Shown here in pieces: positions 12,190 through 54,044 of a DNA stretch of 64,000 nucleotides. The stretch lies in assembly GCF_003790525.1 (NCBI RefSeq), contig NZ_CP033635.1; one strand, 5' to 3'. Origin of the DNA: Escherichia coli. Its GTDB lineage: Bacteria; Pseudomonadota; Gammaproteobacteria; Enterobacterales; Enterobacteriaceae. Below the pieces are notes generated by a model. It worked only from the letters and a program-made list of their open reading frames with translations, was not told the origin of the DNA and did no database searches. Each line of letters opens with the position of its first letter. The first letter of the stretch is position 1. The translations under genes were made by a program, and so were the position numbers.

Positions 12190-12200
12190 GGAAGGGAAAC

Positions 12201-12250
12201 TTGACTTCATATTGTGATGTCATACTATTGATGTCATAAAGTGAAGTCAT
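12201..12250 (+). promoter_or_regulatory. Putative sigma70 promoter and operator repeats of the HicA/HicB-like operon
   Basis: TTGACT (12201-12206), 16-bp spacer, TACTAT (12223-12228); inverted repeat TGACTTCA (12202-12209) / TGAAGTCA (12242-12249) and direct repeats TGATGTCATA; AAGGA SD at 12251-12255. Confidence 0.35.
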
Positions 12251-12305
12251 AAGGACATGCCATGAGAACCCTGGTACAGGCTTTACGGAAGAAACAAAAA
12301 ATACA

Positions 12306-12536
12306 TTGGATCAAATATTTAAATCTCCTGTTCCTCAAGGGATTAAGTGGTCTGATATAGAGTCACTGGTTAAAGCATTAGGCGGAGAAATTAAGGAAGG
12401 AAGAGGTTCGCGTTGTAAGTTCATACTAAATATGAGCGTTGCGTGTTTCCATCGGCCTCATCCGTCGCCAGATACCGATAAAGGCGCTGTAGAAAGCGTG
12501 CGTGACTGGTTACTAAGTATAGGGGTAAAACCATGA
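12306..12536 (+). CDS. HicA-like toxin (YcfA/HicA family); TTG start as drawn, possibly frameshifted relative to an upstream ATG at 12262
   Basis: Core IKWSDIESLVKALGGEIKEGRGSRCKF...FHRPHP...VRDWLLSIGV resembles HicA-family mRNA interferase toxins; stop overlaps the downstream antitoxin ATG (ATGA). See finding on the A6 tract. Confidence 0.55.
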   Translation: MDQIFKSPVPQGIKWSDIESLVKALGGEIKEGRGSRCKFILNMSVACFHRPHPSPDTDKGAVESVRDWLLSIGVKP

Positions 12537-12892
12537 TCAAACTGAAGACGCCAAACTCTATGGAGATTGCCGGGCAACCTGCTGTTATCACTTACGTGCC
12601 AGAACTGAATGCATTTCGTGGCAAATTCCTGGGCTTGTCAGGTTATTGTGATTTTGTCTCTGACAGCATTCAGGGGCTGCAAAAAGAAGGGGAGCTTTCC
12701 CTGCGAGAGTATCTTGAGGATTGTAAAGCTGCGGGTATTGAGCCGTATGCGCGTACAGAAAAGATTAAGACCTTTACATTACGCTATCCAGAATCGCTGA
12801 GTGAACGCCTTAATAATGCGGCTGCGCAGCAACAAGTCTCTGTAAATACTTATATTATTGAAACGCTAAATGAGCGTTTGAATCATTTATAA
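12533..12892 (+). CDS. HicB-like antitoxin with C-terminal ribbon-helix-helix DNA-binding domain
   Basis: 119-aa ORF; N-terminal HicB-like region (YxGxF...EDCKAAGIEP) and C-terminal RHH-like TLRYPESLSERLNNAAAQQQVSVNTYIIETLNERL; AGGGG SD; overlaps toxin stop. Confidence 0.65.
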   Translation: MIKLKTPNSMEIAGQPAVITYVPELNAFRGKFLGLSGYCDFVSDSIQGLQKEGELSLREYLEDCKAAGIEPYARTEKIKTFTLRYPESLSERLNNAAAQQQVSVNTYIIETLNERLNHL

Positions 12893-12941
12893 CTTATAGC
12901 GGCCCAACAATTTCTGTTGCGCCGCTATATTTTTGTGGCTC

Positions 12942-13802
12942 TTAAGATGCCTTTCTAATCAATCGATGCCCCTCATTCATCATCAGGATTTTGCTATACA
13001 CATCTTCCTCGACGGCATTTTTTGCTGATGCCATCACTCGTGCCAGATTCGCCTCGTTGTGATTATTCACATACGCTTTGCCGACGGCAGTGATAAACGC
13101 TTTGCGCAGATCGCTGGCGATATTCACTTTAGCGACGCGATAATTAACGAAACTGCGTAATATCTCCGGGGCGATACCGGAGCCGCCGTGAATAACCAGC
13201 GGCACCGGGCTGACTTCGGCAATGCGCTTCAGCAGGGGGATATCGATCCGCGGTATATCGTCCAGGCCATGAACGTTACCAATAGAAACTGCCAGCATGT
13301 CGCAACCGGTGCGTTCGACAAAGGTCTTCACCTTTTCCGGTTCCGTTTTGCAATCGGCTTCGCTGACGTGATCGTCTTCTTTGCCGAGAATCGCCCCCAG
13401 CTCCGCTTCAACCGGTACGCCATAGGATTTACAGAAATCGACAGCTTCCTGGGTGAAAGCGATATTCTCTTCAAAAGAGAATGCGGCACCGTCAATCATG
13501 ACCGAGGTAAAGCCCGCGCGCACCGCCTGTTTAACATCCTCCTGAGTTTTCCCGTGATCAAGATGAAGACTGACCGGAACATCCATTTTATCAGCGTGAC
13601 GTTTCACGATTTCATAAATGTAATCGTATCCCGACAGTTGTGCATTGGTGGGCGCAATCTGAATGAAGTTGGGTAATCCTGAACGCTCAATGGCGTTTAA
13701 AATTGAAATCGTTGTCTCCAGATTGGTGGTATTAAATGCGCCCGCTAATACCCGTTTTTCCTGAATGCGGTCGAGCAGTATCCGTCCATTAACTAATGGC
13801 AT
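12942..13802 (-). CDS. Class II ketose-bisphosphate aldolase (GatY/KbaY/FbaA family)
   Basis: 286-aa ORF with zinc-site motif SLHLDHG and GxxHG typical of class II tagatose/fructose-bisphosphate aldolases; last gene of the minus-strand PTS operon. Confidence 0.8.
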   Translation of the reverse strand: MPLVNGRILLDRIQEKRVLAGAFNTTNLETTISILNAIERSGLPNFIQIAPTNAQLSGYDYIYEIVKRHADKMDVPVSLHLDHGKTQEDVKQAVRAGFTSVMIDGAAFSFEENIAFTQEAVDFCKSYGVPVEAELGAILGKEDDHVSEADCKTEPEKVKTFVERTGCDMLAVSIGNVHGLDDIPRIDIPLLKRIAEVSPVPLVIHGGSGIAPEILRSFVNYRVAKVNIASDLRKAFITAVGKAYVNNHNEANLARVMASAKNAVEEDVYSKILMMNEGHRLIRKAS

Positions 13803-13833
13803 ATTGAAAACCTCATCTTTTAATATCAGTTAA

Positions 13834-14103
13834 TTATTCAGCTTCACCGAAGCGGTCGCGAAATAAGGTAGTGAGAGTTTGTATTGCCTCGTTTTCATCA
13901 TCACCTTCGCAGCGTATTTCCACCGTTTTTCCGCCTTTTATTCCGGCGCGCATAATATTCATCATGCTGGTGGCATTAATATCATTACCTTCATAATGCA
14001 GCGTCACTTTACAGCTATATTTTTTGGCGGCTTTCGCCAGACAGGCCGCCGGACGTGCATGCAGGCCAGTACTGTTTCTGACCTCCACGGTTTTACTCAA
14101 CAT
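13834..14103 (-). CDS. HPr-family phosphocarrier protein (operon-dedicated paralog)
   Basis: 89-aa ORF with active-site His15 context GLHARPA and HPr-like length; start overlaps the kinase stop by 11 nt. Confidence 0.8.
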   Translation of the reverse strand: MLSKTVEVRNSTGLHARPAACLAKAAKKYSCKVTLHYEGNDINATSMMNIMRAGIKGGKTVEIRCEGDDENEAIQTLTTLFRDRFGEAE

Positions 14104-15601
14104 AGTGCTCCTCCCGATGATGTAATGGCATCACGCCTTCTTGCTGTAATTTCAACTGATACCAGCTTTTCCATTTGTGCTGATAACGCTGTAATTGATG
14201 GTATCTCGCCCGATTCGGTAACAAACGTTGGGCTATGGTGACTTGCGGCGGTGGAATATCCGGTGCGGCGGTTAATAATGCTCCGACAGAAACCGCCTCG
14301 TTAAATGCAATTGCTTCAACCGGACGCTGTAAAATATCCGCCTTTAATTGCAGCCAAAGGGGATTACGGGTTGCCGGACCTATCACTTTTAACGCGCTGG
14401 TGCCGGGCACATTAAAACAGGCGAAGCAGTTGGCAAATTCCATGGTTAATCCCAGTGAGACGCTGGCAATTAACATATCGATATTTAACGTATCGCCAAG
14501 CCCATAAAATAATCCTCGGGTATGGCGATTTTTATAGGGCGAACCCGAACCGCGAAGATGCGGAATAAAAACGGGAATGTCATCGAGCGACCAGTTCCCC
14601 GCCAGGTAATCCGCATGTCCGCGAGTAAGTGATGCGGCGATCTCCTCATCGGTTAGCCGGAACGTGTTGCGCAGCCACTCCAGAGCGAAACCGCCCACCG
14701 GCAGCGACGCAAACAGGGTGAACTGGTTTGCAAGCGAATAACAGCCGTTTGCCAGCTTGTCACGTTTGGCATGTTCATCCAGCGTCGGTTGTGTATCCAG
14801 TTGCAGAATGCCTTCTGTGGTGCCCGTCGAGTTAAGGATATCGCCCGGCGTCATCTGCAACGCCCGCGCACCCACCATATGGTCATGCCCGGCCAGCGTC
14901 ACGCTGACCGGTTGCAAGAACCCAAGCGTTTTGCAGAGCGACTCGCTGACCCATCCGGCGTGCTCGCCTGGCTGCACCAATGGCGCAAATGCTGAACAGG
15001 GAACGTGTAACAACGCCGCCGCTTTCGCTGACCATTCGCCTTTACGCACGTCCAGACACAGCGTACGGCTGGCTAAGGTGATATCCGTACGCTGTTCGCC
15101 AGTCAGCCGCCAGAGCAGTACTTCCGGCGCATGTAGCCAACGCAGGCCGCGGCGATTACGCAGTGGATAATGCTCCAGCAACCAACGCATTTTGAAGGCA
15201 GAGTAATTGCTGTGCAGCGGTAGCCCGCAGATGTCATAAAGCGCCGCACTGTCTGCCTCACTAAGCGTTGCCAGGTACTCTTCACCGCGGCGGTCATACC
15301 ATGCCAGCATTGGCGTCAGGATCTCGCCATGCTCGTCAAGAAACACCCCTGACTCGCCAAAACTGGCAATGCTTATCCGCCTGACCGGCAGCGGCGAAGC
15401 GGCGCTCAGTTGCGCTATTGCCTGGCGGACCTCCTGCCAGAGGGCGTCGATATCGAAATCGACATCGCCCTGTGGGGAGATCTGTTTTGCCGTCACGAAT
15501 TTATGCGCGCCCAACGTCGTTGCATCCAGGCAGGAAAAGCAGGTGACTTTGCAATTGGTGGTGCCAATATCGATAACGATAGCTGCGCTGTTATCAGGCA
15601 T
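14093..15601 (-). CDS. FGGY-family carbohydrate kinase
   Basis: 502-aa ORF with FGGY N-terminal motif VIDIGTTNCK and two actin-like ATPase halves; overlaps the EIIC stop by 8 nt. Confidence 0.75.
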   Translation of the reverse strand: MPDNSAAIVIDIGTTNCKVTCFSCLDATTLGAHKFVTAKQISPQGDVDFDIDALWQEVRQAIAQLSAASPLPVRRISIASFGESGVFLDEHGEILTPMLAWYDRRGEEYLATLSEADSAALYDICGLPLHSNYSAFKMRWLLEHYPLRNRRGLRWLHAPEVLLWRLTGEQRTDITLASRTLCLDVRKGEWSAKAAALLHVPCSAFAPLVQPGEHAGWVSESLCKTLGFLQPVSVTLAGHDHMVGARALQMTPGDILNSTGTTEGILQLDTQPTLDEHAKRDKLANGCYSLANQFTLFASLPVGGFALEWLRNTFRLTDEEIAASLTRGHADYLAGNWSLDDIPVFIPHLRGSGSPYKNRHTRGLFYGLGDTLNIDMLIASVSLGLTMEFANCFACFNVPGTSALKVIGPATRNPLWLQLKADILQRPVEAIAFNEAVSVGALLTAAPDIPPPQVTIAQRLLPNRARYHQLQRYQHKWKSWYQLKLQQEGVMPLHHREEHYVE

Positions 15602-16952
15602 AAACCGTGCTCCGCGTCATTCGGAAAATGCCATACAGTACCAGGGCGATAACCGGCACCAGACCAATGGCGATGAGATTGCCGTTGAAGATTTCCAGCA
15701 GCCAGAAGCGGAACGGGTTACCGCCATCAAGGAAACTGGAAACCTGGCCGCTGGAGCCTTCGGCAAATTTGAAGTTAACGTCTTTCGCCATTCCGGTAAT
15801 AAACGGCGCGATTTTAGTGGCAATCCACAGGTCGGCAATAATCACCGGGATCGCCGCCAGAACGGTGCGGAAAATATTGCCACGGCTGGCTAAAGCAATC
15901 ATCGACGCCATTACCGCCAGGTTGGCAAGGTCACCAAGCGGCAGGACTTCATTACCTGGGAGGACAAACGCGATAAAGACCGAGATTGGCGTCAGCAGCA
16001 GGGCGGTGGAGATAATCGCCGGGTTACCTACGGCAACGGCGATATCCAGGCCGATATAGAGATCGTCACGGTCAGGGTATTTGGCATTGAGATACTTTTT
16101 AATGGCTTCAGACAGCGGTAATAAACCTTCCATCAGGATGCGTACCATGCGTGGCAGGATGAACATCACACCGCCAATGCTGATGCCAAGCAGCAAGACT
16201 TTTTTGAAATCGTATCCGGCAATTACGCCGAGCAGAATGCCCAGAATAGTGCCAACCATCATCGGTTCGCCGAAGATGCCAAACTTTTTCTGTACGGTTT
16301 CCGGGTCGATATGAATACGATTGAGGCCAGGGATATGGTCGATGATTTTGTCGACCAGCAGACCGACCGGGAAGAACACCACCGAAGAGAGCGTCGGCAA
16401 TGAGATCCCTTCCAGGCCAAAGTATTTTTGTACCAGTGGCGCAGACCAGTCGGCGAGTTTTAGCACCACCACTGCGGCAATCGCGGCCGCCAGCAAACCA
16501 AAGAACAGGCTGCCGGTGCTGTAATAAACCAGCGTACCGGCAAGGGCAAAATGCCAGTAGTTCCACATATCTACATCAACGGTGCGGGTTTTATTCAACG
16601 CCAGCATTGCGACATTAATCAGAATGGTCAGGGGAATAACAAACGGGGCAATTGGCGACCCCCAGGTAATGGCAGAAAGCGGCGGCCAGCCTAAATCCAC
16701 CACCGGTAAATTAATTCCGGTGCGTTCAACCATCGCCTGGGCCGCTGGCCCGACATTGCTGGTAAGAATATCGAAAATGGCATAAATACCGACAAAACCA
16801 ATGCCGACCGTTAATGACGAGCGTAAGGCTTTAGCGGGTTTTACTTTAAAACAGAGAGCAAGAATAAATAACACCAACGGCAACATTACCGTGGGGCCAA
16901 ATCCCAATATATATTGCACAATATTATAGAGGGTATGCGCGATATCGTTCAT
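15594..16952 (-). CDS. PTS galactitol-family EIIC permease
   Basis: Start taken at the internal ATG (MNDIAHTLYNIV...) preceded by AAGAGG; 452 aa, polytopic, collinear with GatC-type IIC proteins. Confidence 0.8.
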   Translation of the reverse strand: MNDIAHTLYNIVQYILGFGPTVMLPLVLFILALCFKVKPAKALRSSLTVGIGFVGIYAIFDILTSNVGPAAQAMVERTGINLPVVDLGWPPLSAITWGSPIAPFVIPLTILINVAMLALNKTRTVDVDMWNYWHFALAGTLVYYSTGSLFFGLLAAAIAAVVVLKLADWSAPLVQKYFGLEGISLPTLSSVVFFPVGLLVDKIIDHIPGLNRIHIDPETVQKKFGIFGEPMMVGTILGILLGVIAGYDFKKVLLLGISIGGVMFILPRMVRILMEGLLPLSEAIKKYLNAKYPDRDDLYIGLDIAVAVGNPAIISTALLLTPISVFIAFVLPGNEVLPLGDLANLAVMASMIALASRGNIFRTVLAAIPVIIADLWIATKIAPFITGMAKDVNFKFAEGSSGQVSSFLDGGNPFRFWLLEIFNGNLIAIGLVPVIALVLYGIFRMTRSTVYA

Positions 16953-17025
16953 AATAAACCTCTTTTTCAGGCGAGAGCGCACCTCGCGTTAGCGCCTGAT
17001 GGAGTGGGTTGGAATTAATTATTAA

Positions 17026-17307
17026 TTACTTTTTAAGAATCGAAACAATTTGCGCCAGCACTTTCTCTTCGCCAATACCGGTAATAATGGGTAAGCCGTT
17101 AACCACCGGCACGTCGAGTTCATAAGGCACTTTAGTCGTTGAAACAACCAGCGCTACGCCGTCGGTATTACCGGGTAAAGAGGCAACGTTGGTTTGGGAA
17201 TAATTGACGTTAAGGCCGTGCTCTTTGCAATACTCCATGACTTTTTCTGTTACCGCCGTGGATGTGGCAATACCTGTGGCGCAGACAAATAAAATGGTTT
17301 GACTCAT
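17026..17307 (-). CDS. PTS galactitol-family EIIB
   Basis: 93-aa ORF with N-terminal phospho-Cys context ILFVCATGIATS. Confidence 0.8.
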   Translation of the reverse strand: MSQTILFVCATGIATSTAVTEKVMEYCKEHGLNVNYSQTNVASLPGNTDGVALVVSTTKVPYELDVPVVNGLPIITGIGEEKVLAQIVSILKK

Positions 17308-17789
17308 ATTTCACCTCGTTCATTCATTTTGTTTAAGATTACTGTGTGTATTTCTGTTGTTTCCATCGTAAGCAAGGCTTGCATAAAGGGCGTATCCTGA
17401 ATCATCTCCATAATCCAGCCCAGGGCATTTAATTGTTTGTTACTTTCGCTTAAGGCGAGCAAAAAAATCACCCTGACAGGCACGGGATCAGGGTCGCCGC
17501 CCATATCGGCAAACTCTACCGGCTCTGGCAAAATACCGACGGCAATTGCATTGTGCCGGACATGTTTATGGTCCGTGTGCGGAATGGCGACGCACGGTGG
17601 TTCGGTAGGCAGCCCCGTTGGATACGTCGCCTCACGTTTCAGTACGTGATTGGCAAAATCAGGGACCACCAGCTCAGCAGCAACCAACGGTTGCGCTAAC
17701 TGACGGATGATCTGTTCAACGCTTAACCCTGCCGGAAGTCGTTGAATATAATTTTCCTGAAACTGTATGCCTTGCATTTTATTCCTCAT
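17304..17789 (-). CDS. PTS EIIA (mannitol/fructose-type EIIA-2 fold)
   Basis: 161-aa ORF with AIPH phospho-His motif; 4-nt overlap with EIIB start. Confidence 0.75.
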   Translation of the reverse strand: MRNKMQGIQFQENYIQRLPAGLSVEQIIRQLAQPLVAAELVVPDFANHVLKREATYPTGLPTEPPCVAIPHTDHKHVRHNAIAVGILPEPVEFADMGGDPDPVPVRVIFLLALSESNKQLNALGWIMEMIQDTPFMQALLTMETTEIHTVILNKMNERGEI

Positions 17790-17801
17790 AAAAAAGTGTA
17801 T

Positions 17802-18548
17802 TTAACTCACTTCCCGCCGTTGCAGCACGGTGCCCAGATAATATTTATTTCCTTTTAACCAGACGTTGCCAAACTCAACGGGTAACTCTCGGGAGAAAAA
17901 GACTAACTGCTCCAGATGCAAAACGGGTGCATCTTCACTGATATCTAAAAAATGACCGCGTTCATTACCAATTAATCGCGCGGCATAGCGACTTTCCGAG
18001 TAACGAATTTTTCTTTGCGACAAACTTTCTATTGTTGGAAATAAATTGTGTTGATTAAAATCGATTTCCACGATGCCGGGGCATAGCTCAATATTGATAC
18101 GGTTCTCTATCAGCATCGCTTTTTCATCACCAATTGAACGTAAACGCTCAAGGTAAAGAATATCCTGACCGGGCGTTATTCTTAATTTCTCTGCCACATA
18201 ACGATTAGCCGGTTCAATCCGTGACGTAATAACTTCAGTGGTAAAATGTATTTTCTGGCTTTCCAGCGATTCCGCGAATGACAATAATCCTTCACCTAAC
18301 GGATATGCCACGTTCTCTTTTTTGACAAAAGTTCCCTTCCCCTGGACCTGAATCAACACGCCTTCTTTTACCAGTTGGGCGACCGCTTTTTTAACGGTTC
18401 CCCGACTCACTTCCAGCATATCCATAATCTGGTATTCCGAAGGAATGCGATCGTCTTCCACCAGATCCCCGGTATAAATACTTTCTCTTATCCACTCCAC
18501 CACTTGTTGATAGAGCGGTATTTGTGACGACTTACTTAATGATTTCAT
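17802..18548 (-). CDS. GntR/HutC-family transcriptional regulator (HTH plus UTRA effector domain)
   Basis: Track ORF to 18557 (GTG); ATG at 18546-18548 (MKSLSKSSQIPLYQQ...) with AGGTG SD preferred. N-terminal GntR wHTH (SEYQIMDMLEVSRGTVKKAVAQL). Confidence 0.8.
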   Translation of the reverse strand: MKSLSKSSQIPLYQQVVEWIRESIYTGDLVEDDRIPSEYQIMDMLEVSRGTVKKAVAQLVKEGVLIQVQGKGTFVKKENVAYPLGEGLLSFAESLESQKIHFTTEVITSRIEPANRYVAEKLRITPGQDILYLERLRSIGDEKAMLIENRINIELCPGIVEIDFNQHNLFPTIESLSQRKIRYSESRYAARLIGNERGHFLDISEDAPVLHLEQLVFFSRELPVEFGNVWLKGNKYYLGTVLQRREVS

Positions 18549-18571
18549 GGCGCGCACCTGAACATTTACAG

Positions 18572-18585
18572 TTGTCTATGGACAA
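18572..18585 (-). promoter_or_regulatory. Putative GntR-family operator upstream of the PTS regulator
   Basis: Palindrome TTGTCTATGGACAA matching the GntR/HutC consensus, followed by a direct repeat GACAA; lies just upstream of the regulator start. Confidence 0.4.
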
Positions 18586-18746
18586 TCATGGACAACTTCA
18601 AGCGTATAGTAGGTGAACGGGAGAAAAAGAGGATCGAAGCGTCTCACATTTTGAGGGACCAAATCGTGATCAAAAAAATGTGACGTGAGTCGATATTTGG
18701 CAGGAATTTACTGCGCCGTCAGGAAATAACGGCGCGTGGGTAGGTG

Positions 18747-21550
<2,804 letters not shown>

Positions 21551-28739: not shown

Positions 28740-28985
28740 ATGACCGATCTCTTTTCCAGCCCTGACCACACACTCGACGCACTTGGCCTGCGCTGCCCGG
28801 AACCAGTAATGATGGTGCGCAAAACAGTGCGCAATATGCAGCCAGGTGAAACGTTGCTGATTATTGCTGACGATCCGGCGACGACACGCGATATTCCTGG
28901 GTTTTGTACCTTTATGGAACACGAACTGGTTGCGAAAGAGACGGATGGACTGCCTTATCGTTATTTGATTCGCAAATCGGGGTAA
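28740..28985 (+). CDS. tusA: Sulfur carrier protein TusA
   Basis: 81-aa ORF with CPxP motif ([12 protein letters not shown]). Confidence 0.9.
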
Positions 28986-29038
28986 GGTGGATCAGGCTAG
29001 CGGACCGATCGCGCTCAATTTTGCGGCTTGCAACCGGT

Positions 29039-29176
29039 TTGTAGGACGGATAAAAAGTTCAAGCTGCATCTGGCGATACGGTGCGCAATGCCTGATGCGA
29101 CGCTGTCGCGTCTTATCATGCCTACGAGTTCGATGCCCTGTGTAGGCCAGATAAGGCGTTTACGCCGCATCCGGCA
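29039..29176. repeat. REP/BIME cluster
   Basis: Two inversely oriented REP-type palindromic units (GCCTGATGCGACGCTGTCGCGTCTTATCATGCCTAC and TGTAGGCCAGATAAGGCGTTTACGCCGCATCCGGCA) plus a partial unit. Confidence 0.7.
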
Positions 29177-29199
29177 CGCAAACGTAATGGAATGCACAA

Positions 29200-29508
29200 A
29201 TGGATTATTTAATTCCAGTTTGTCTGGCATTGCTGGGATTGCTCGCGATCTTCACCCCCAATTGGCTGATCCCTGTTTTTATCGTCGTGGGGGGATGGCT
29301 GGGGGTACTTGCCTGGGGTTGGCTCTGGCTAATGATTTTTTTACCTTTACTTAACGGTGTCGGGCTTGCTTATGCCCTGTGGTTGATGTTCAAAAGGCCA
29401 TCCATAGCATCCCGCCTGGTTGCTGCATGCTGTGTTATCTCCGTCATTCTGATGTTAGCGCTTTATTATGCTTTCCTGACTATGCCGCCGTTCCCGCCTC
29501 AGCACTAA
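29200..29508 (+). CDS. Hypothetical small membrane protein (3 predicted TM helices, Trp-rich)
   Basis: 102-aa ORF between the REP cluster and the zntA 3' end; strongly hydrophobic; no clear SD; may be spurious. Confidence 0.3.
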   Translation: MDYLIPVCLALLGLLAIFTPNWLIPVFIVVGGWLGVLAWGWLWLMIFLPLLNGVGLAYALWLMFKRPSIASRLVAACCVISVILMLALYYAFLTMPPFPPQH

Positions 29509-29540
29509 GCCTGATAGCCAGAGGCTATCAGGCAACACTT

Positions 29541-31739
29541 TTACTTCCTGCGCAACAATCTTAACGCATTCGCCGTCACCAGCACCGTCGCACCCGTATC
29601 TGCCAGCACCGCCAGCCATAGCCCGGTCATTCCTAACAGTGTGGTGACGAGGAAAACGCCTTTCAGCCCCAGCGCAATGGTGATGTTCTGGCGGATATTG
29701 GCGTGAGTGGCGCGTGCCAGTTCAATCATTTGCACCAGACCGCGCAGGTGGTTATGGGTTAATGCTGCATCGGCGGTTTCCAGCGCCACGTCTGTGCCAC
29801 TGCCCATTGCAATCCCGATGGCGGCAGCTTTCATCGCTGGCGCGTCGTTAATACCATCACCGACCATCGCCAGCGGCGCATGTTGATTCAGCTCGGTCAC
29901 CGCTTTGACTTTATCTTCCGGCAACAGGCCCGCTTTAAATTCCAGCCCCAACTCCCCGGCAATTGCCGCCGCGGCGCGTGGATTATCGCCGGTGAGGATC
30001 ACTCCTTTAACCCCCAGCGCGTTCAGTTCACTGATAGCAGTTGCAGCATCGGCGCGCAGGGTATCCTGCAACGCAATGACACCCAGCACGTCATCATTAC
30101 GTACTACCAGCACTACCGTTTGCCCGGCGCTTTCCAGTTCATTAATCAAACCAGCAAATGCATCAGCAGGATGTTTTCCGGCAGCGCATATCAACACGCG
30201 CTCACCGTTAACCTGCGCTTCAATGCCAGACCCGACCAGCGCCCGCTGTGATTGGGCGGTGGGAATGGCGAGTTCAGCAACCTGTGCTTCGCGCACAATG
30301 GCTTGTGCCAGTGGATGCGTCGCGCCTTGCTCGACCGCCGCCGCCAGTGTCAGCAGTTCAGATTCACTAATACCCGTTGCCGGATGAATCGCGGTAACGC
30401 GCGGTTTACCGACGGTCAGCGTACCGGTTTTATCAAACGCCACCTGGGTAACACGACCCAGCTGCTCCAGCGCCGCGCCGCCTTTAATCAACGCCCCACG
30501 ACGCGCTGCTGCCGCCAGCCCGGAGGTAATCGCCGCGGGCGTGGAGATAACTAACGCACACGGGCAACCAATCAGCAGCAGCGTCAGCCCTTTATAAATC
30601 CACTCTTGCCAGCTGGCGGCAAACAGCAGCGGCGGCACCAGCGTCACCAGCAGAGCGACGGCCATAATCGCTGGCGTGTAGATACGGCTGAAACGGTCGA
30701 TAAACCGCTCAATGGGGGCGCGACGCTCTTCGGCTTCTTCGATCAGTTTCAGAATCCGGTCAATGGCGCTGGCACCCGGTTCTGACAGCACTTCCAGCGT
30801 TACCAGACGGTCTACGCTGGTGGCACCAGCAGGGACTTTATCGCCCGTTGCGCGCTCCACCGGAATGGATTCTCCGGTCAGGGCGCTTTCATCAAAACTG
30901 GCAAACGGTGAGAGCAGTTTACCGTCGGCAGGCAAACGCCCACCTGCCGCAACTTCAATCACATCGCCAGGGCGCAGGCTGTTAATCGCCACCTCTTCAC
31001 GCTCACCGTTACGCAGACGCGTGGCGGTTTCCGGTTTCAGCGCCATTAACGCGCTAACGCCCTGACGCGCGCGGCTGGCGGCCCAGCCTTCCAGTCGTTC
31101 ACCAATCAAAAACAGCAGCAACACCATCGCAGCTTCAGCCGTTGCGCCAATAAACAGCGCACCAATAGCGGCTACGCTCATTAAGGTTTCAATGGCGAAG
31201 TAGCTGCCAGATTTGATCAGCCGTAATGCCTGACGAGCAATCGGGTACAGCCCAACCAGCGTGGTCGCGATAAACGCCAGTTGACCAAACGGATGATTGA
31301 ACTGCTCCAGACCCCAGCTGATTGCCATCATCACGATTAGCGTAATCAGCGGCAGATTCTCTTTCAGGCGTGATGCTTGTGGTTCGTCGGTGGTCTGTTC
31401 ATCGCGCAGGGAATAGCCCGCTTTTTGCACCGCAGATTCAACCTGGGCACGGATGTCATTGTCGGCATCGACTACCAATTTTTCGGTGGCGAACAACACC
31501 TGCACCTGATTCACGCCTGCAAGCTGGCGCACGGCATTTTCCACTTTGCGCGCACAGGCGGCGCAGTCCATGCCGCTGACTTTCCAGCTATAGCGGGTGC
31601 CGGAGACGCTTTCAGAGAGCGTTGGCGTGCTGGAACATGCGCCATCGCAGCAACAGTCGTTGGTGTTCTGTACCGTAGTTAGCGGTTTGAACGCAGCAAA
31701 TTGAGGGGCTTTCTTGCCGTGATTGTCAGGAGTCGACAT
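29541..31739 (-). CDS. zntA: Zn/Cd/Pb-exporting P1B-type ATPase ZntA
   Basis: 732-aa ORF with N-terminal metal-binding GMDCAAC, CPC transmembrane motif and DKTGTLT phosphorylation site. Confidence 0.95.
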   Translation of the reverse strand: MSTPDNHGKKAPQFAAFKPLTTVQNTNDCCCDGACSSTPTLSESVSGTRYSWKVSGMDCAACARKVENAVRQLAGVNQVQVLFATEKLVVDADNDIRAQVESAVQKAGYSLRDEQTTDEPQASRLKENLPLITLIVMMAISWGLEQFNHPFGQLAFIATTLVGLYPIARQALRLIKSGSYFAIETLMSVAAIGALFIGATAEAAMVLLLFLIGERLEGWAASRARQGVSALMALKPETATRLRNGEREEVAINSLRPGDVIEVAAGGRLPADGKLLSPFASFDESALTGESIPVERATGDKVPAGATSVDRLVTLEVLSEPGASAIDRILKLIEEAEERRAPIERFIDRFSRIYTPAIMAVALLVTLVPPLLFAASWQEWIYKGLTLLLIGCPCALVISTPAAITSGLAAAARRGALIKGGAALEQLGRVTQVAFDKTGTLTVGKPRVTAIHPATGISESELLTLAAAVEQGATHPLAQAIVREAQVAELAIPTAQSQRALVGSGIEAQVNGERVLICAAGKHPADAFAGLINELESAGQTVVLVVRNDDVLGVIALQDTLRADAATAISELNALGVKGVILTGDNPRAAAAIAGELGLEFKAGLLPEDKVKAVTELNQHAPLAMVGDGINDAPAMKAAAIGIAMGSGTDVALETADAALTHNHLRGLVQMIELARATHANIRQNITIALGLKGVFLVTTLLGMTGLWLAVLADTGATVLVTANALRLLRRK

Positions 31740-32941: not shown

Positions 32942-33211
32942 TTATTTTTTAACTTTAAATTTCTTCTGCCAGACCAGCAGTTCAAACACGCCGAAAAGGA
33001 AAATCCGCACCTTTTCGGCGGTGGTCATCTGCGGGCCATCTTTCGGCAAAGTGGATTTCAATAGCGCCAGCTGCATACCATGCATCAGCACGGTAAAAAT
33101 CAGCGCCACGTTAACGAAAATATTCAGCGGACGCGGGAAGGGATGCACCAGGTTGAGGATTAAAAATCCCCAAACGCAGAGCATTAACAAACGTCCAATA
33201 TTAATCAACAT
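32942..33211 (-). CDS. yhhL: DUF1145 small membrane protein YhhL
   Basis: Start taken at internal ATG (MLINIGRLLMLCVWGFL...), 89 aa. Confidence 0.8.
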   Translation of the reverse strand: MLINIGRLLMLCVWGFLILNLVHPFPRPLNIFVNVALIFTVLMHGMQLALLKSTLPKDGPQMTTAEKVRIFLFGVFELLVWQKKFKVKK

Positions 33212-33797
33212 CACTTTCTCCTTGTGCTTCGCGTTGATACAGCCGATAAGCCACCTGACCCGCCACTTTTTCCCGATGTAATGACCAGTTCGCCGGAACA
33301 GTGGGCAGACCGTTTTCGACTTCGCTTTCGACATAAATCAGGGCTTCGTCAGCCAGCCAGCCGTTATCTTCCAGTAAATTTATCGTCTCTTCTAACAATC
33401 CACGGCGGAACGGTGGATCGACAAACACGATATTATGCGGTGTGCCTTTTTGCGCCAGGAATGACATCGCGTTGCTGTTCACCACGCGTGCATTGCCTGC
33501 TTTTAGTGTCGCCAGATTCTTAATTAACTGCTGAGAAACCGCACGATCCATCTCAATCAACGTGGCCCCCGCAGCGTAGCGCGATAACGCTTCCAGCCCC
33601 AGCGCGCCGCTTCCGGCGAAGCAATCCAGACATTGGGCGTCAACAATGACCGGAGCCAGCCAGTTAAACAACGTTTCGCGTACGCGGTCGGTGGTGGGGC
33701 GCAGACCTGGGCTATCAGGAACCGGGAGTTTACGGCCTCGCCACTGCCCGCCAATAATGCGGATTTGGCCGCTGCCGGAATGATTCGGTTTTTTCAT
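33201..33797 (-). CDS. rsmD: 16S rRNA m2G966 methyltransferase RsmD
   Basis: 198-aa ORF with SAM-binding motif LDCFAGSGALGLEA and DPPF motif. Confidence 0.9.
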   Translation of the reverse strand: MKKPNHSGSGQIRIIGGQWRGRKLPVPDSPGLRPTTDRVRETLFNWLAPVIVDAQCLDCFAGSGALGLEALSRYAAGATLIEMDRAVSQQLIKNLATLKAGNARVVNSNAMSFLAQKGTPHNIVFVDPPFRRGLLEETINLLEDNGWLADEALIYVESEVENGLPTVPANWSLHREKVAGQVAYRLYQREAQGESDVD

Positions 33798-33946
33798 GAT
33801 AAATTGCTCAATCCGCCAGATAACACATACTTGCAGGCGGTGATGTGAATTAAGTTAAGTGATAGACTATTTCATCATTTTTTTAGCTGCTATGTACATA
33901 GCGTTAACGCTGTGCCATGAAGCAACAGCGAGGAGTGTAGTCGCAA

Positions 33947-35485
33947 ATGGCGAAAGAAAAAAAACGTGGCTTTTTTTCCTGGCTGGGCTTTGGTCAAAAA
34001 GAGCAGACCCCGGAAAAAGAGACAGAAGTTCAGAATGAACAACCAGTTGTAGAAGAAATCGTTCCGGCGCAAGAGCCTGTGAAGGCTTCTGAACAAACCG
34101 TTGAAGAGCAGCCGCAGGCGCATACTGAAGCCGAGGCGGAAACTTTTGCTGCCGACGTTGTGGAAGTTACTGAACAGGTTGCTGAAAGTGAAAAAGCGCA
34201 GCCTGAAGCTGTTGCTGAACCGGAAGTTATTACTGAGCCGGAAACGATAGTTGAAGAAACGCCAGCGTCAGTCATTGAACCTGAAGTTACGCCAGAGCCA
34301 GTGGCTATCGAGCGTGAAGAGCTGCCGTTGCCGGAAGACGTCAACGCCGAAGAGGTTTCGCCAGAAGAGTGGCAGGCTGAAGCGGAAACCCTAGAGATTG
34401 TCGAAGCGGCGGAAGAAGAAGCGGCTAAAGAAGACATCACCGACGAAGAGCTGGAAGCACAGGCGCTGGCTGCCGAAGCGGCAGAAGAGGCGGTAATGGT
34501 GGTTTCTCCGGCAGAAGAAGAGCAGCCGGTGGAAGAAATCGCTCAGGAGCAGGAAAAACCGACCAAAGAAGGTTTCTTCGCGCGCCTGAAACGCAGCCTG
34601 TTAAAAACCAAAGAAAATCTCGGTTCCGGATTTATCAGCCTGTTCCGCGGTAAAAAAATCGACGATGATCTGTTTGAAGAGCTGGAAGAACAGCTGTTGA
34701 TCGCCGATGTGGGCGTGGAAACCACACGTAAAATTATCACCAATCTGACGGAAGGCGCATCCCGCAAGCAGCTTCGTGATGCCGAGGCGCTCTATGGCCT
34801 GCTGAAAGAAGAGATGGGCGAGATTCTGGCGAAAGTCGATGAGCCGCTGAATGTTGAAGGTAAAACGCCGTTCGTGATCCTGATGGTGGGCGTCAACGGT
34901 GTGGGTAAAACCACGACGATTGGTAAGCTGGCGCGTCAGTTTGAGCAGCAGGGTAAATCGGTGATGCTGGCGGCAGGCGATACTTTCCGTGCGGCAGCGG
35001 TTGAACAGCTTCAGGTCTGGGGTCAGCGCAACAATATTCCGGTGATTGCCCAGCATACCGGTGCGGATTCCGCTTCTGTTATCTTCGACGCCATTCAGGC
35101 CGCTAAAGCGCGTAACATCGACGTCCTGATTGCCGATACCGCCGGACGCCTGCAAAACAAATCGCACCTGATGGAAGAGTTGAAGAAAATCGTCCGCGTG
35201 ATGAAGAAACTCGACGTTGAAGCTCCGCATGAAGTTATGCTGACTATTGATGCCAGCACCGGGCAGAATGCGGTAAGCCAGGCCAAACTGTTCCACGAAG
35301 CCGTTGGCTTAACCGGCATCACGCTAACGAAACTGGACGGCACGGCGAAAGGCGGGGTAATTTTCTCGGTGGCTGACCAGTTTGGTATCCCTATCCGCTA
35401 CATTGGTGTCGGCGAACGTATTGAGGATTTGCGTCCGTTTAAGGCGGACGACTTTATAGAGGCACTTTTTGCCCGAGAGGATTAA
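33947..35485 (+). CDS. ftsY: Signal recognition particle receptor FtsY
   Basis: 512-aa ORF: acidic repeat-rich A domain then NG domain with GVNGVGKTTT, DTAGR, TKLDG motifs. Confidence 0.95.
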   Translation: MAKEKKRGFFSWLGFGQKEQTPEKETEVQNEQPVVEEIVPAQEPVKASEQTVEEQPQAHTEAEAETFAADVVEVTEQVAESEKAQPEAVAEPEVITEPETIVEETPASVIEPEVTPEPVAIEREELPLPEDVNAEEVSPEEWQAEAETLEIVEAAEEEAAKEDITDEELEAQALAAEAAEEAVMVVSPAEEEQPVEEIAQEQEKPTKEGFFARLKRSLLKTKENLGSGFISLFRGKKIDDDLFEELEEQLLIADVGVETTRKIITNLTEGASRKQLRDAEALYGLLKEEMGEILAKVDEPLNVEGKTPFVILMVGVNGVGKTTTIGKLARQFEQQGKSVMLAAGDTFRAAAVEQLQVWGQRNNIPVIAQHTGADSASVIFDAIQAAKARNIDVLIADTAGRLQNKSHLMEELKKIVRVMKKLDVEAPHEVMLTIDASTGQNAVSQAKLFHEAVGLTGITLTKLDGTAKGGVIFSVADQFGIPIRYIGVGERIEDLRPFKADDFIEALFARED

Positions 35486-35487
35486 CA

Positions 35488-36156
35488 ATGATTCGCTTTG
35501 AACATGTCAGCAAGGCTTATCTCGGTGGGAGACAGGCGCTGCAGGGCGTTACGTTCCATATGCAGCCGGGTGAGATGGCGTTTCTGACCGGTCATTCCGG
35601 CGCAGGGAAAAGTACCCTCCTGAAGCTGATCTGTGGGATTGAGCGGCCCAGCGCCGGGAAAATCTGGTTTAGCGGCCATGACATCACGCGTCTGAAAAAC
35701 CGTGAAGTTCCGTTTCTGCGCCGCCAGATTGGCATGATTTTCCAGGATCACCATCTACTGATGGACCGTACTGTCTACGATAATGTGGCGATCCCGCTGA
35801 TTATCGCCGGTGCCAGCGGTGACGATATTCGTCGCCGGGTGTCGGCGGCACTGGATAAAGTCGGGCTACTGGACAAAGCGAAGAACTTTCCTATTCAGCT
35901 TTCCGGCGGTGAACAACAACGTGTTGGCATTGCCCGCGCGGTGGTGAACAAGCCTGCGGTACTGCTGGCGGATGAACCGACCGGTAACCTGGACGACGCG
36001 TTGTCGGAAGGCATTTTACGTCTGTTTGAAGAGTTTAACCGCGTTGGGGTAACCGTATTGATGGCAACGCACGACATCAACCTGATCTCGCGGCGTTCCT
36101 ATCGCATGCTCACCCTGAGCGATGGTCACTTGCATGGAGGCGTGGGCCATGAATAA
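35488..36156 (+). CDS. ftsE: Cell division ABC ATPase FtsE
   Basis: 222-aa ORF with Walker [10 protein letters not shown] and LSGGEQQR signature. Confidence 0.95.
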
Positions 36157-37207
36157 GCGCGATGCAATCAATCATATTCGGCAGTTTGGCGGGCGTCTGG
36201 ATCGCTTCCGTAAATCGGTCGGCGGCTCTGGCGACGGCGGTCGTAACGCGCCAAAACGGGCGAAATCCTCGCCAAAACCGGTAAATCGCAAAACCAACGT
36301 TTTCAACGAACAGGTGCGCTATGCCTTCCACGGCGCATTGCAGGATCTGAAAAGCAAACCGTTCGCCACGTTTTTAACGGTGATGGTTATCGCCATCTCC
36401 CTGACGCTGCCCAGCGTCTGTTATATGGTGTACAAAAACGTTAACCAGGCGGCGACGCAATATTATCCGTCACCGCAAATCACTGTTTATCTGCAAAAAA
36501 CGCTGGACGATGACGCCGCTGCGGGCGTGGTGGCACAGTTGCAGGCCGAGCAAGGCGTGGAGAAAGTGAATTATCTTTCTCGTGAAGACGCACTGGGCGA
36601 GTTCCGTAACTGGTCTGGTTTTGGTGGTGCGCTGGATATGCTGGAAGAAAACCCGCTTCCGGCAGTGGCGGTGGTGATCCCGAAACTCGATTTTCAGGGG
36701 ACGGAATCACTGAATACGCTGCGTGATCGTATCACCCAGATCAACGGCATTGACGAAGTGCGGATGGATGACAGCTGGTTTGCCCGTCTGGCGGCGTTAA
36801 CCGGGCTGGTCGGGCGCGTTTCCGCGATGATCGGCGTGTTGATGGTGGCAGCAGTGTTCCTCGTCATCGGTAACAGTGTGCGCCTGAGTATCTTTGCTCG
36901 CCGTGACTCCATTAACGTGCAGAAACTGATTGGTGCGACGGATGGTTTCATCCTGCGCCCGTTCCTATACGGAGGCGCATTGCTGGGATTTTCTGGCGCA
37001 TTGTTGTCATTAATTTTGTCAGAAATTCTGGTGCTGCGATTGTCATCGGCGGTTGCGGAAGTGGCGCAGGTTTTCGGAACGAAGTTTGATATCAATGGTT
37101 TATCGTTCGATGAATGCCTGCTATTGCTGCTGGTATGCTCGATGATTGGCTGGGTGGCAGCGTGGCTTGCCACGGTACAACATTTACGCCACTTTACGCC
37201 TGAATAA
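36149..37207 (+). CDS. ftsX: Cell division ABC permease-like protein FtsX
   Basis: Start taken at ATG 36149 ([15 protein letters not shown]...), 352 aa; overlaps ftsE stop. Confidence 0.9.
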
Positions 37208-45512: not shown

Positions 45513-45518
45513 ATTATC

Positions 45519-45551
45519 AATAACCCGGCAGCTAAGTTCTGCCGGGTTATT
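45519..45551. terminator. Hairpin after livF
   Basis: Perfect 13-bp inverted repeat AATAACCCGGCAG / CTGCCGGGTTATT with 7-nt loop, 7 bp after the livF stop; no strong T-run. Confidence 0.5.
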
Positions 45552-45630
45552 CGTCCGTATACAGACTTGTTTCAACAGACCGGGAGGATTAAAACCAGAC
45601 CACTTATTTGCCACGGAAAGGTTTGCTCCC

Positions 45631-46377
45631 ATGCATTATGCCGTTGTTGTCATGCTTGAACTGCTTTGCTGTATTCACGCTTACCGTACCGGACAAGAGC
45701 GGTACTGGATTTTTATCATTTTCTGTTTTCCGGTGATTGGCTGCGTGGCGTATTTCGTCATAGTGATGTTGCCTGAAACGGGCGCTGACCGTCACGGGCA
45801 TACTTTGCTGATGCGCCTGCAGGACAAACTCAACCCTGAGCGCCACCTGCGCAAATTAACCGAAGAACTGGCGATTGCCGAGACGAATCAAAACCATTAT
45901 GCGTTGGCTAATGAACTGGTGTGTCTGGGGCGTTATCACGAAGCTGTTCCCCATTATCAGCAGGCGTTAAGCGGGATATTCGTCCATGAAGCGGCAATGA
46001 TGCTAAGCCTGGCGCAGGCGCAGTTTGCCATTCAGGAGTTCGCCGCCTGTCAGCAGACGCTGGAAGATGTGATGCGTTATAACCCCGATTTTCAGTCGGC
46101 AGACGGGCATTTGTTATTTGCCAGAGCGTTAGCCGCACAAGAAAAATACGCTGATGCGGAAAGCGAGTTTGAGGTGTTGATTTCTTATTACTCCGGCCCG
46201 CAGGCGCGTATTTACTATGCGGAAATGTTGGCGAAAATGAGTCGGTTACGTGAAGCCAACGAGCAGTATATTGCTGTGGTTGATACGGCTAAACGTTCAA
46301 AACCACATTATAGAAAACACCACCGGGAATGGATTAAGACCGCCAATGAACGGCTGAAGCAGAGTGTGGTGCAATGA
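45631..46377 (+). CDS. Hypothetical membrane-anchored protein: N-terminal PLDc_N-like two-helix domain plus C-terminal TPR-like helical domain
   Basis: 248-aa ORF; N-terminus VVVMLELLCCIHAYRTGQERYWIFIIFCFPVIGCVAYFVIV resembles the PLD-nuclease N-terminal membrane domain; remainder predicted helical-repeat. Own terminators downstream. Confidence 0.55.
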   Translation: MHYAVVVMLELLCCIHAYRTGQERYWIFIIFCFPVIGCVAYFVIVMLPETGADRHGHTLLMRLQDKLNPERHLRKLTEELAIAETNQNHYALANELVCLGRYHEAVPHYQQALSGIFVHEAAMMLSLAQAQFAIQEFAACQQTLEDVMRYNPDFQSADGHLLFARALAAQEKYADAESEFEVLISYYSGPQARIYYAEMLAKMSRLREANEQYIAVVDTAKRSKPHYRKHHREWIKTANERLKQSVVQ

Positions 46378-46447
46378 AAATCTTCTTTGCCGTTAGACCA
46401 GTGTCGCGGCAATCTTTTGTTAAAATTGAAAAATGTAGCTCTCATCG

Positions 46448-46485
46448 GGCAGCAAAACTGGACGCAGAATTTGCTGCCATTTTTG
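46448..46485 (+). terminator. Rho-independent terminator downstream of the 248-aa ORF
   Basis: Stem GGCAGCAAA / TTTGCTGCC followed by ATTTTTG; a second hairpin GGCGATTA / TAATCGCC + TCTTTT lies at about 46507-46537. Confidence 0.55.
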
Positions 46486-46600
46486 CTCTTCATGGTAAGG
46501 AGTTCTGGCGATTAGCTGGCCGTTAATCGCCTCTTTTCAGTGCATTCTCGGGATATCCGTGCCCCATCTCCCATTTTCCCTCACCCGTACCGTCACCGCC

Positions 46601-53984: not shown

Positions 53985-53989
53985 TATCT

Positions 53990-54018
53990 TAAGCCCTCTC
54001 CCGGTAGGTGAGGGCTTA
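53990..54018. terminator. Bidirectional hairpin between convergent ggt and yhhY
   Basis: Stem TAAGCCCTC / GAGGGCTTA with 11-nt loop in a 60-bp intergenic gap. Confidence 0.5.
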
Positions 54019-54044
54019 AATGACAAACGTAGATTGCAAATTCT

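Follow-up and report, generated by a model that had tools for sequence, protein, structure and literature searches.

Why is the FtsY protein encoded in this stretch of Escherichia coli DNA (64,000 nucleotides, referred to here as the window) longer than that of K-12, and which of the two lengths is the derived one? An earlier note on the sequence had estimated that the acidic A domain of this SRP receptor exceeds that of K-12 by about 15 residues. When the ORF translation was compared with the K-12 CDS as a check for identical length, the two lengths were found to differ: FtsY has 512 aa (1539 nt) in the window and 497 aa (1494 nt) in K-12.

FtsY architecture and the position of the extra residues

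The gene lies in the orthologous position, in the ftsY-ftsE-ftsX operon and with the divergently transcribed rsmD on its other side. This gene order is the same in K-12 and SC516, and the window is collinear with K-12 across the ftsY region. The gene, its domains and the segments that account for the length difference were placed as follows:

33947..35485, plus strand: ftsY coding sequence from the ORF list, 512 codons plus stop (1539 nt), SRP receptor FtsY
33947..34570, plus strand: A domain, acidic, low-complexity and N-terminal (aa 1-208)
33947..34029, plus strand: basic, lipid-binding N-terminal end of the A domain, MAKEKKRGFFSWLGFG..., invariant
34209..34220, plus strand: 12-nt segment encoding VAEP, from the alignments; missing from the 497- and 498-aa alleles
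34259..34288, plus strand: 30-nt segment encoding TPASVIEPEV, from the alignments; missing from the 497- and 498-aa alleles, its placement sliding within a repeat
34459..34461, plus strand: single codon, the Gln of ...LEAQAL..., from the alignments; missing from the 497-aa allele of K-12, kept in the 498-aa majority
34571..34600, plus strand: amphipathic membrane-targeting helix at the A-N junction, GFFARLKRSL, unchanged
34619..34816, plus strand: N domain, SRP54_N helical bundle (aa 225-290; Pfam PF02881, E = 4.3e-15)
34868..35470, plus strand: G domain, SRP54-type GTPase (aa 308-508; Pfam PF00448, E = 1.2e-79, full profile covered)

The first 208 aa contain 59 Glu, 30 Ala, 23 Val and 18 Pro at a net charge of -51, which bears out the earlier description of an acidic domain rich in E, P, V and A. 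The first Pfam domain match of FtsY starts at aa 225, with none upstream. As is typical of an A domain, the acidic stretch is bordered by an amphipathic, basic N-terminus on one side and the A-N junction helix on the other, and in the alignment both membrane-binding motifs, MAKEKKRGFFSWLGFG and GFFARLKRSL, are the same as in K-12. The 83 nt at the 5' end of ftsY showed no change across all E. coli alleles examined and an E. albertii-like allele, and the junction helix is invariant in every aligned sequence from Escherichia, Salmonella, Citrobacter and Klebsiella. Further downstream, an SRP54_N domain precedes the G domain, as in the SRP54-type GTPase family, and the translation contains the motifs GVNGVGKT, DTAGR and TKLD. 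The last 300 aa, in which most of the NG domain including the G domain lies, match a common 498-aa allele at 300 of 300 positions and K-12 at 299 of 300. By all criteria that can be tested on sequence, the protein is an enterobacterial FtsY, and its close match to K-12 suggests that it would bind SRP (Ffh/4.5S RNA) in a GTP-dependent manner and also bind SecYEG and lipids. An Rfam scan of 33000-36500 matched no RNA family. A Ser-rich antisense ORF of 136 aa (34030-34440, minus strand) was discarded as a by-product of the sense strand, which is rich in the Glu codons GAA and GAG; nothing marks it as a gene.

Protein and DNA alignments resolved the length difference into three gaps, all of them in-frame, inside the central A domain and within 34050-34560, the interval to which the earlier note had assigned it. 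In K-12 numbering, the 12-nt and 30-nt indels map close to residues 88 and 100, centrally within a disordered stretch (residues 38-140). The window allele thus shares with K-12 FtsY (WP_001040654.1, 497 aa) the gene, the rsmD / ftsY-ftsE-ftsX locus, the A-N-G order and both membrane motifs, and differs from it by the additional VAEP, TPASVIEPEV and Q in the central A domain. The A domain accounts for 12 non-synonymous differences between the two alleles, the NG domain for one.

Allele frequencies and the direction of change

Of 5,426 complete E. coli genomes, all except one contain ftsY, and the gene of the window was found at an identity of at least 99% in only 46 of the 5,426. For a census of the long allele, a query of 110 nt covering both extra pieces was used. 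This segment was complete in 49 of the 5,426 genomes (0.9%) at 97-100% identity, SMS-3-5 and SC516 among them. The ftsY gene of SC516 is 100% identical to that of the window over 1539 nt, and its annotated product (WP_001040624.1) is without any difference from the window allele; the 512-aa sequence is thus already known from RefSeq. Other E. coli 512-aa alleles are a few percent away from the window allele and have a different NG-domain haplotype. The long allele is putatively no clean marker of a single phylogroup. In a search with the short junction of K-12, coverage cannot separate long from short alleles, as the pieces are joined, and the identity bands alone are informative.

In a sample of 30 evenly spaced records, the lengths of ftsY were distributed as follows:

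1497 nt (498 aa): 19 of 30 sampled records
1494 nt (497 aa): 8 of 30 sampled records
1539 nt (512 aa): 1 of 30 sampled records
1488 nt (495 aa): 1 of 30 sampled records
1377 nt (458 aa): 1 of 30 sampled records

The commonest FtsY length in this sample is 498 aa and not the 497 aa of K-12, and further in-frame deletions in other E. coli lead to the 495-aa and 458-aa alleles. Six complete genomes filed as E. coli, including SCU-172 (NZ_CP054353.1), carry an ftsY gene of 504 aa with 80-90% identity to that of the window. In the A-domain alignment this allele is almost identical to FtsY of E. albertii NBRC 107761, and the six records may be mislabelled or represent a divergent lineage. An A-domain search of a collection of 5.8 billion proteins returned mostly partial fragments, which are of little use for lengths, together with sequences from Salmonella, Citrobacter and Klebsiella and one E. 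albertii fragment.

Outgroups were collected with a DNA pattern derived from the invariant 5' end of ftsY, using one genome per species. The scan yielded ftsY from five representatives of Escherichia and from many other Enterobacteriaceae, but not from E. fergusonii, E. marmotae or E. ruysiae. Salmonella, Citrobacter and Klebsiella were left out of the polarity analysis because their central A domain is too diverged to align the indel columns reliably. Both extra pieces are present at the same positions, homologous but diverged, in E. whittamii (512 aa), in the divergent SCPM-O-B-8794, which is filed as E. coli (512 aa), and in Escherichia sp. E1V33 (509 aa). These three proteins share the A-domain architecture of the window FtsY and are diverged from it in sequence (A-domain pS 0.2-0.3, pN about 0.06); E1V33 is in addition without three residues (AEA). 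In E. albertii (504 aa) and Escherichia sp. MOD1-EC7003 (486 aa), the 4-aa piece is present together with two of the ten residues of the second piece, 24 of whose 30 nt are missing.

All of the examined non-coli Escherichia (E. albertii, E. whittamii, E1V33, MOD1-EC7003 and SCPM-O-B-8794) thus possess the 12-nt piece. Its ancestral status is therefore unambiguous, and these 12 nt were lost from the majority allele of E. coli. The polarity of the 30-nt piece is not as clean, as MOD1-EC7003, one of the two lineages in which 24 of the 30 nt are missing, has the smallest NG-domain synonymous distance of the non-coli genomes. This piece, too, is most simply read as ancestral to E. coli, with a homoplasious history for which either repeated deletion or insertion followed by recombination is needed. 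The earlier note had named in-frame repeat expansion or contraction as the source of the extra length. Since the long form is common to E. whittamii, E1V33 and SCPM-O-B-8794, the contraction half of this suggestion applies, to K-12 and most E. coli, while an expansion in this genome does not fit. The shorter forms are each one slip away from the long form, and the reverse would take more steps. Most likely, the long A-domain architecture is therefore ancestral and the K-12 form contracted. An expectation centred on K-12 is corrected accordingly: its FtsY is a contracted form and is not even of the common E. coli length.

On these alignments, the short allele is nevertheless not a simple two-deletion derivative of the long allele of the window. 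After simulated removal of both indels, the two alleles still differed by 11 substitutions over 109 nt, of which nine cluster in the interval between the indels; the rest of the ftsY region diverges from K-12 by about 2%. At several of the substituted sites, K-12 has the outgroup state and the window the derived state, so that the window allele would be ancestral in architecture and not in every base. The long and the short haplotype are both old. The NG domain of the window is nearest to a 498-aa allele (pS 0.023; 0.13-0.14 to other 512-aa alleles), and its A domain is nearest to the other E. coli 512-aa alleles (pS 0.04-0.05). This pattern indicates that ftsY is an intragenic mosaic that arose by recombination among E. 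coli alleles, so that the history of the allele differs from that of the strain.

Direct repeats, alternative explanations and likely consequence

Short direct repeats were found at each of the following sites, at a spacing that corresponds to the respective gap:

34203..34219, plus strand: CTGAA direct repeats (34203-34207 and 34215-34219), 12 nt apart, flanking the 12-nt indel
34259..34295, plus strand: ACGCCAG direct repeats (34259-34265 and 34289-34295), exactly 30 nt apart, flanking the 30-nt indel
34251..34279, plus strand: TTGAA direct repeats (34251-34255 and 34275-34279), 24 nt apart, fitting the 24-nt gap of the E. albertii-type 504-aa allele
34362..34489, plus strand: CAGAAGAG direct repeats (34362-34369 and 34482-34489), 120 nt apart, fitting the 120-nt in-frame deletion in strain PSJ-07 (458-aa allele)

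In-silico loss of one 30-nt period yields the K-12 junction, GAAGAA-ACGCC(A/G)G-AGCC. The ACGCCAG repeat family was also detected in a general repeat search (81% identity over 21 nt at 30-nt spacing). The repeats at the indels are microhomologies of 5-8 nt within degenerate PExxxE-like units and do not form an exact tandem repeat. Tandem Repeats Finder reported a sole array (15 nt x 2.1 at 34403-34434), which lies away from the indels. A change in the copy number of an exact repeat was rejected, since neither the tandem nor the general repeat search shows a clean array at the indels, and slippage between short repeats fits the indels better than a true tandem array would. Of the earlier description of this region as repeat-rich and slippage-prone, the low complexity, the degenerate repeats and the proneness to indels hold, while a clean tandem array does not.

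In-frame indel polymorphism that arises by slippage between short direct repeats in disordered low-complexity linkers is a general and well-known phenomenon, and in-frame deletion between such repeats is textbook material. The ftsY gene resembles such cases in that its indels are multiples of 3 nt, have flanking repeats of 5-8 nt at a spacing equal to the indel length and occur in a disordered part of the protein. Unlike contingency loci, in which an exact or near-exact tandem array changes its copy number, it has neither a homopolymer nor an exact tandem array at these sites, and its frame is never broken. Under this mechanism, the 12 nt and 30 nt would have been lost in frame in the ancestor allele of most E. 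coli, including K-12, probably through replication slippage or microhomology-mediated deletion between the two CTGAA and between the two ACGCCAG repeats, and one codon more would have disappeared from 497-aa alleles such as that of K-12.

We thus consider it highly probable that the ftsY gene of the window is an ordinary, catalogued natural allele that keeps a longer, probably ancestral A domain, from which most E. coli have lost 12 nt and 30 nt. The opposite direction, in which the long allele is derived and gained both pieces by duplication or slippage from a 498-aa ancestor, appears quite improbable. The first 14 nt of the 30-nt piece do match the next unit at 12 of 14 positions (ACGCCAGnGnCAGT), the repeat family with its 30-nt spacing would suit a duplication, and the long form is rare among the complete genomes. 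Past these 14 nt, however, the 30-nt units are unrelated (14 of 30 positions identical by eye), which argues against a recent duplication, and the outgroups have homologous pieces at the same positions. Introgression of the long A-domain haplotype from another Escherichia lineage by homologous recombination, as opposed to vertical retention, would be in line with the mosaic structure of the gene and with a local enrichment of substitutions near the indels (the 58 aligned bases of 34200-34299 include 10 mismatches, compared to about 2 per 100 nt elsewhere). We nevertheless regard it as unlikely. None of the sampled non-coli lineages is a close donor: the A-domain pS is 0.2-0.36 to SCPM-O-B-8794, E. 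whittamii, E1V33 and E. albertii and 0.13 to MOD1-EC7003, but only 0.04-0.05 to the E. coli long alleles, and an old long/short polymorphism whose alleles recombined within E. coli accounts equally well for the mosaic. An assembly or sequencing artefact has practically no probability as a source of the extra length and was rejected. Low-complexity sequence rich in GAA and CCG can mis-assemble in principle, but 49 independent complete genomes share the long segment, diverged copies occur in other Escherichia species, and the reading frame is intact.

A further question is whether the additional residues matter for the function of the tether. In K-12 FtsY, residues 8-18 bind lipids, whereas residues 38-140 were found by NMR to be intrinsically disordered and highly dynamic, and showed no lipid binding (PMC5094494). 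The latter stretch binds SecYEG non-specifically via its charge and acts as a flexible tether, and it has been proposed that the central A domain enables the NG domain to scan an area (PMC5094494). A membrane-targeting role has been described for the A-N junction helix (PMC2928010). The truncated variant FtsY-NG+1, in which Phe196 is all that is kept of the A domain, targeted a model substrate in vitro just 26% less efficiently (PMC2928010), and reportedly complements FtsY depletion (Eitan and Bibi 2004, as cited in PMC2928010). VAEP and TPASVIEPEV together add 14 residues, including three Glu, to the disordered acidic tether of the window FtsY, which is thereby about 7% longer between the lipid-binding N-terminal end and the A-N junction helix. 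Comparisons between Escherichia alleles gave pN/pS values of 0.2-0.57 for the A domain, 10-20 times higher than the 0-0.04 of the NG domain, and full-length FtsY spans 459-587 aa across the Enterobacteriaceae recovered. Because the tether is disordered, the A domain is mostly dispensable, its pN/pS is higher and the length of FtsY is variable, the effect of the 14 residues is probably small or nil and the difference near-neutral, in agreement with the earlier note, which had judged it probably neutral.

It is very unlikely, in our view, that the length of the acidic tether is tuned such that the 14 residues alter tethering to SecYEG or the encounter of SRP and FtsY and are kept by selection in some lineages. 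The electrostatic binding of the central A domain to the translocon and the proposed scanning by the NG domain (PMC5094494) would give such tuning a basis, A-domain length varies widely among Enterobacteriaceae, and an A-domain pN/pS below 1 points to some constraint. Yet FtsY can largely do without its A domain both in vivo and in vitro (PMC2928010), variants from 458 to 512 aa are tolerated in E. coli isolates, and the long allele has not spread beyond 0.9% of the genomes. Equally doubtful is the stronger version, according to which the long/short polymorphism is maintained, length and charge tune the hold at SecYEG, and the 512-aa form confers a lineage-specific advantage in the targeting of membrane proteins.

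A literature search found no paper on FtsY length polymorphism. The finding is of little consequence and would not surprise a specialist. Still, ftsY is a tidy case of in-frame deletions between short direct repeats in the disordered linker of an essential protein, and the natural series from 458 to 512 aa could be used as ready-made tether-length variants in work on the A domain. For annotation, a length mismatch of ftsY with K-12 is not an error.

Other differences from K-12 in the window

Several further segments of the window differ from K-12. At 53985-54041, the 3.4-kb ggt-yhhY segment of K-12 (a tssD/hcp-like gene, yrhA, IS1A, yrhD and yrhB) is absent, with about 57 nt at the junction. 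The tusA-zntA intergenic region (28977-29545) is about 450 bp longer than in K-12; its largest ORF (29200-29508, 102 aa) gave no Pfam match. The livF-ugpB interval (45513-46553) contains about 0.8 kb more than in K-12, including a 248-aa ORF (45631-46377) that gave weak matches to tetratricopeptide repeats and none in PADLOC.

In place of the rhsB-yhhH-ISEc1 segment of K-12, the window has 6.5 kb (12190-18748) with a HicB-like antitoxin ORF (12533-12892) and a minus-strand sugar-utilisation cluster consisting of a class II aldolase, an FGGY kinase, a PTS EIIC (GAT type), a PTS EIIA and a GntR/UTRA regulator. Between gntU and yhgN, a 3.5-kb insertion relative to K-12 (59952-63434) carries two overlapping genes. 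One of them encodes a RecQ/DEAD-type helicase of 698 aa (60091-62187) with a full-length PADLOC match to PsyrT (1058 bits), the other a DprA-like protein of 431 aa (62094-63389) with a full-length PADLOC match to PsyrA (669 bits). Judging from these matches, the gene pair is the known PsyrTA toxin-antitoxin and anti-phage defence system.
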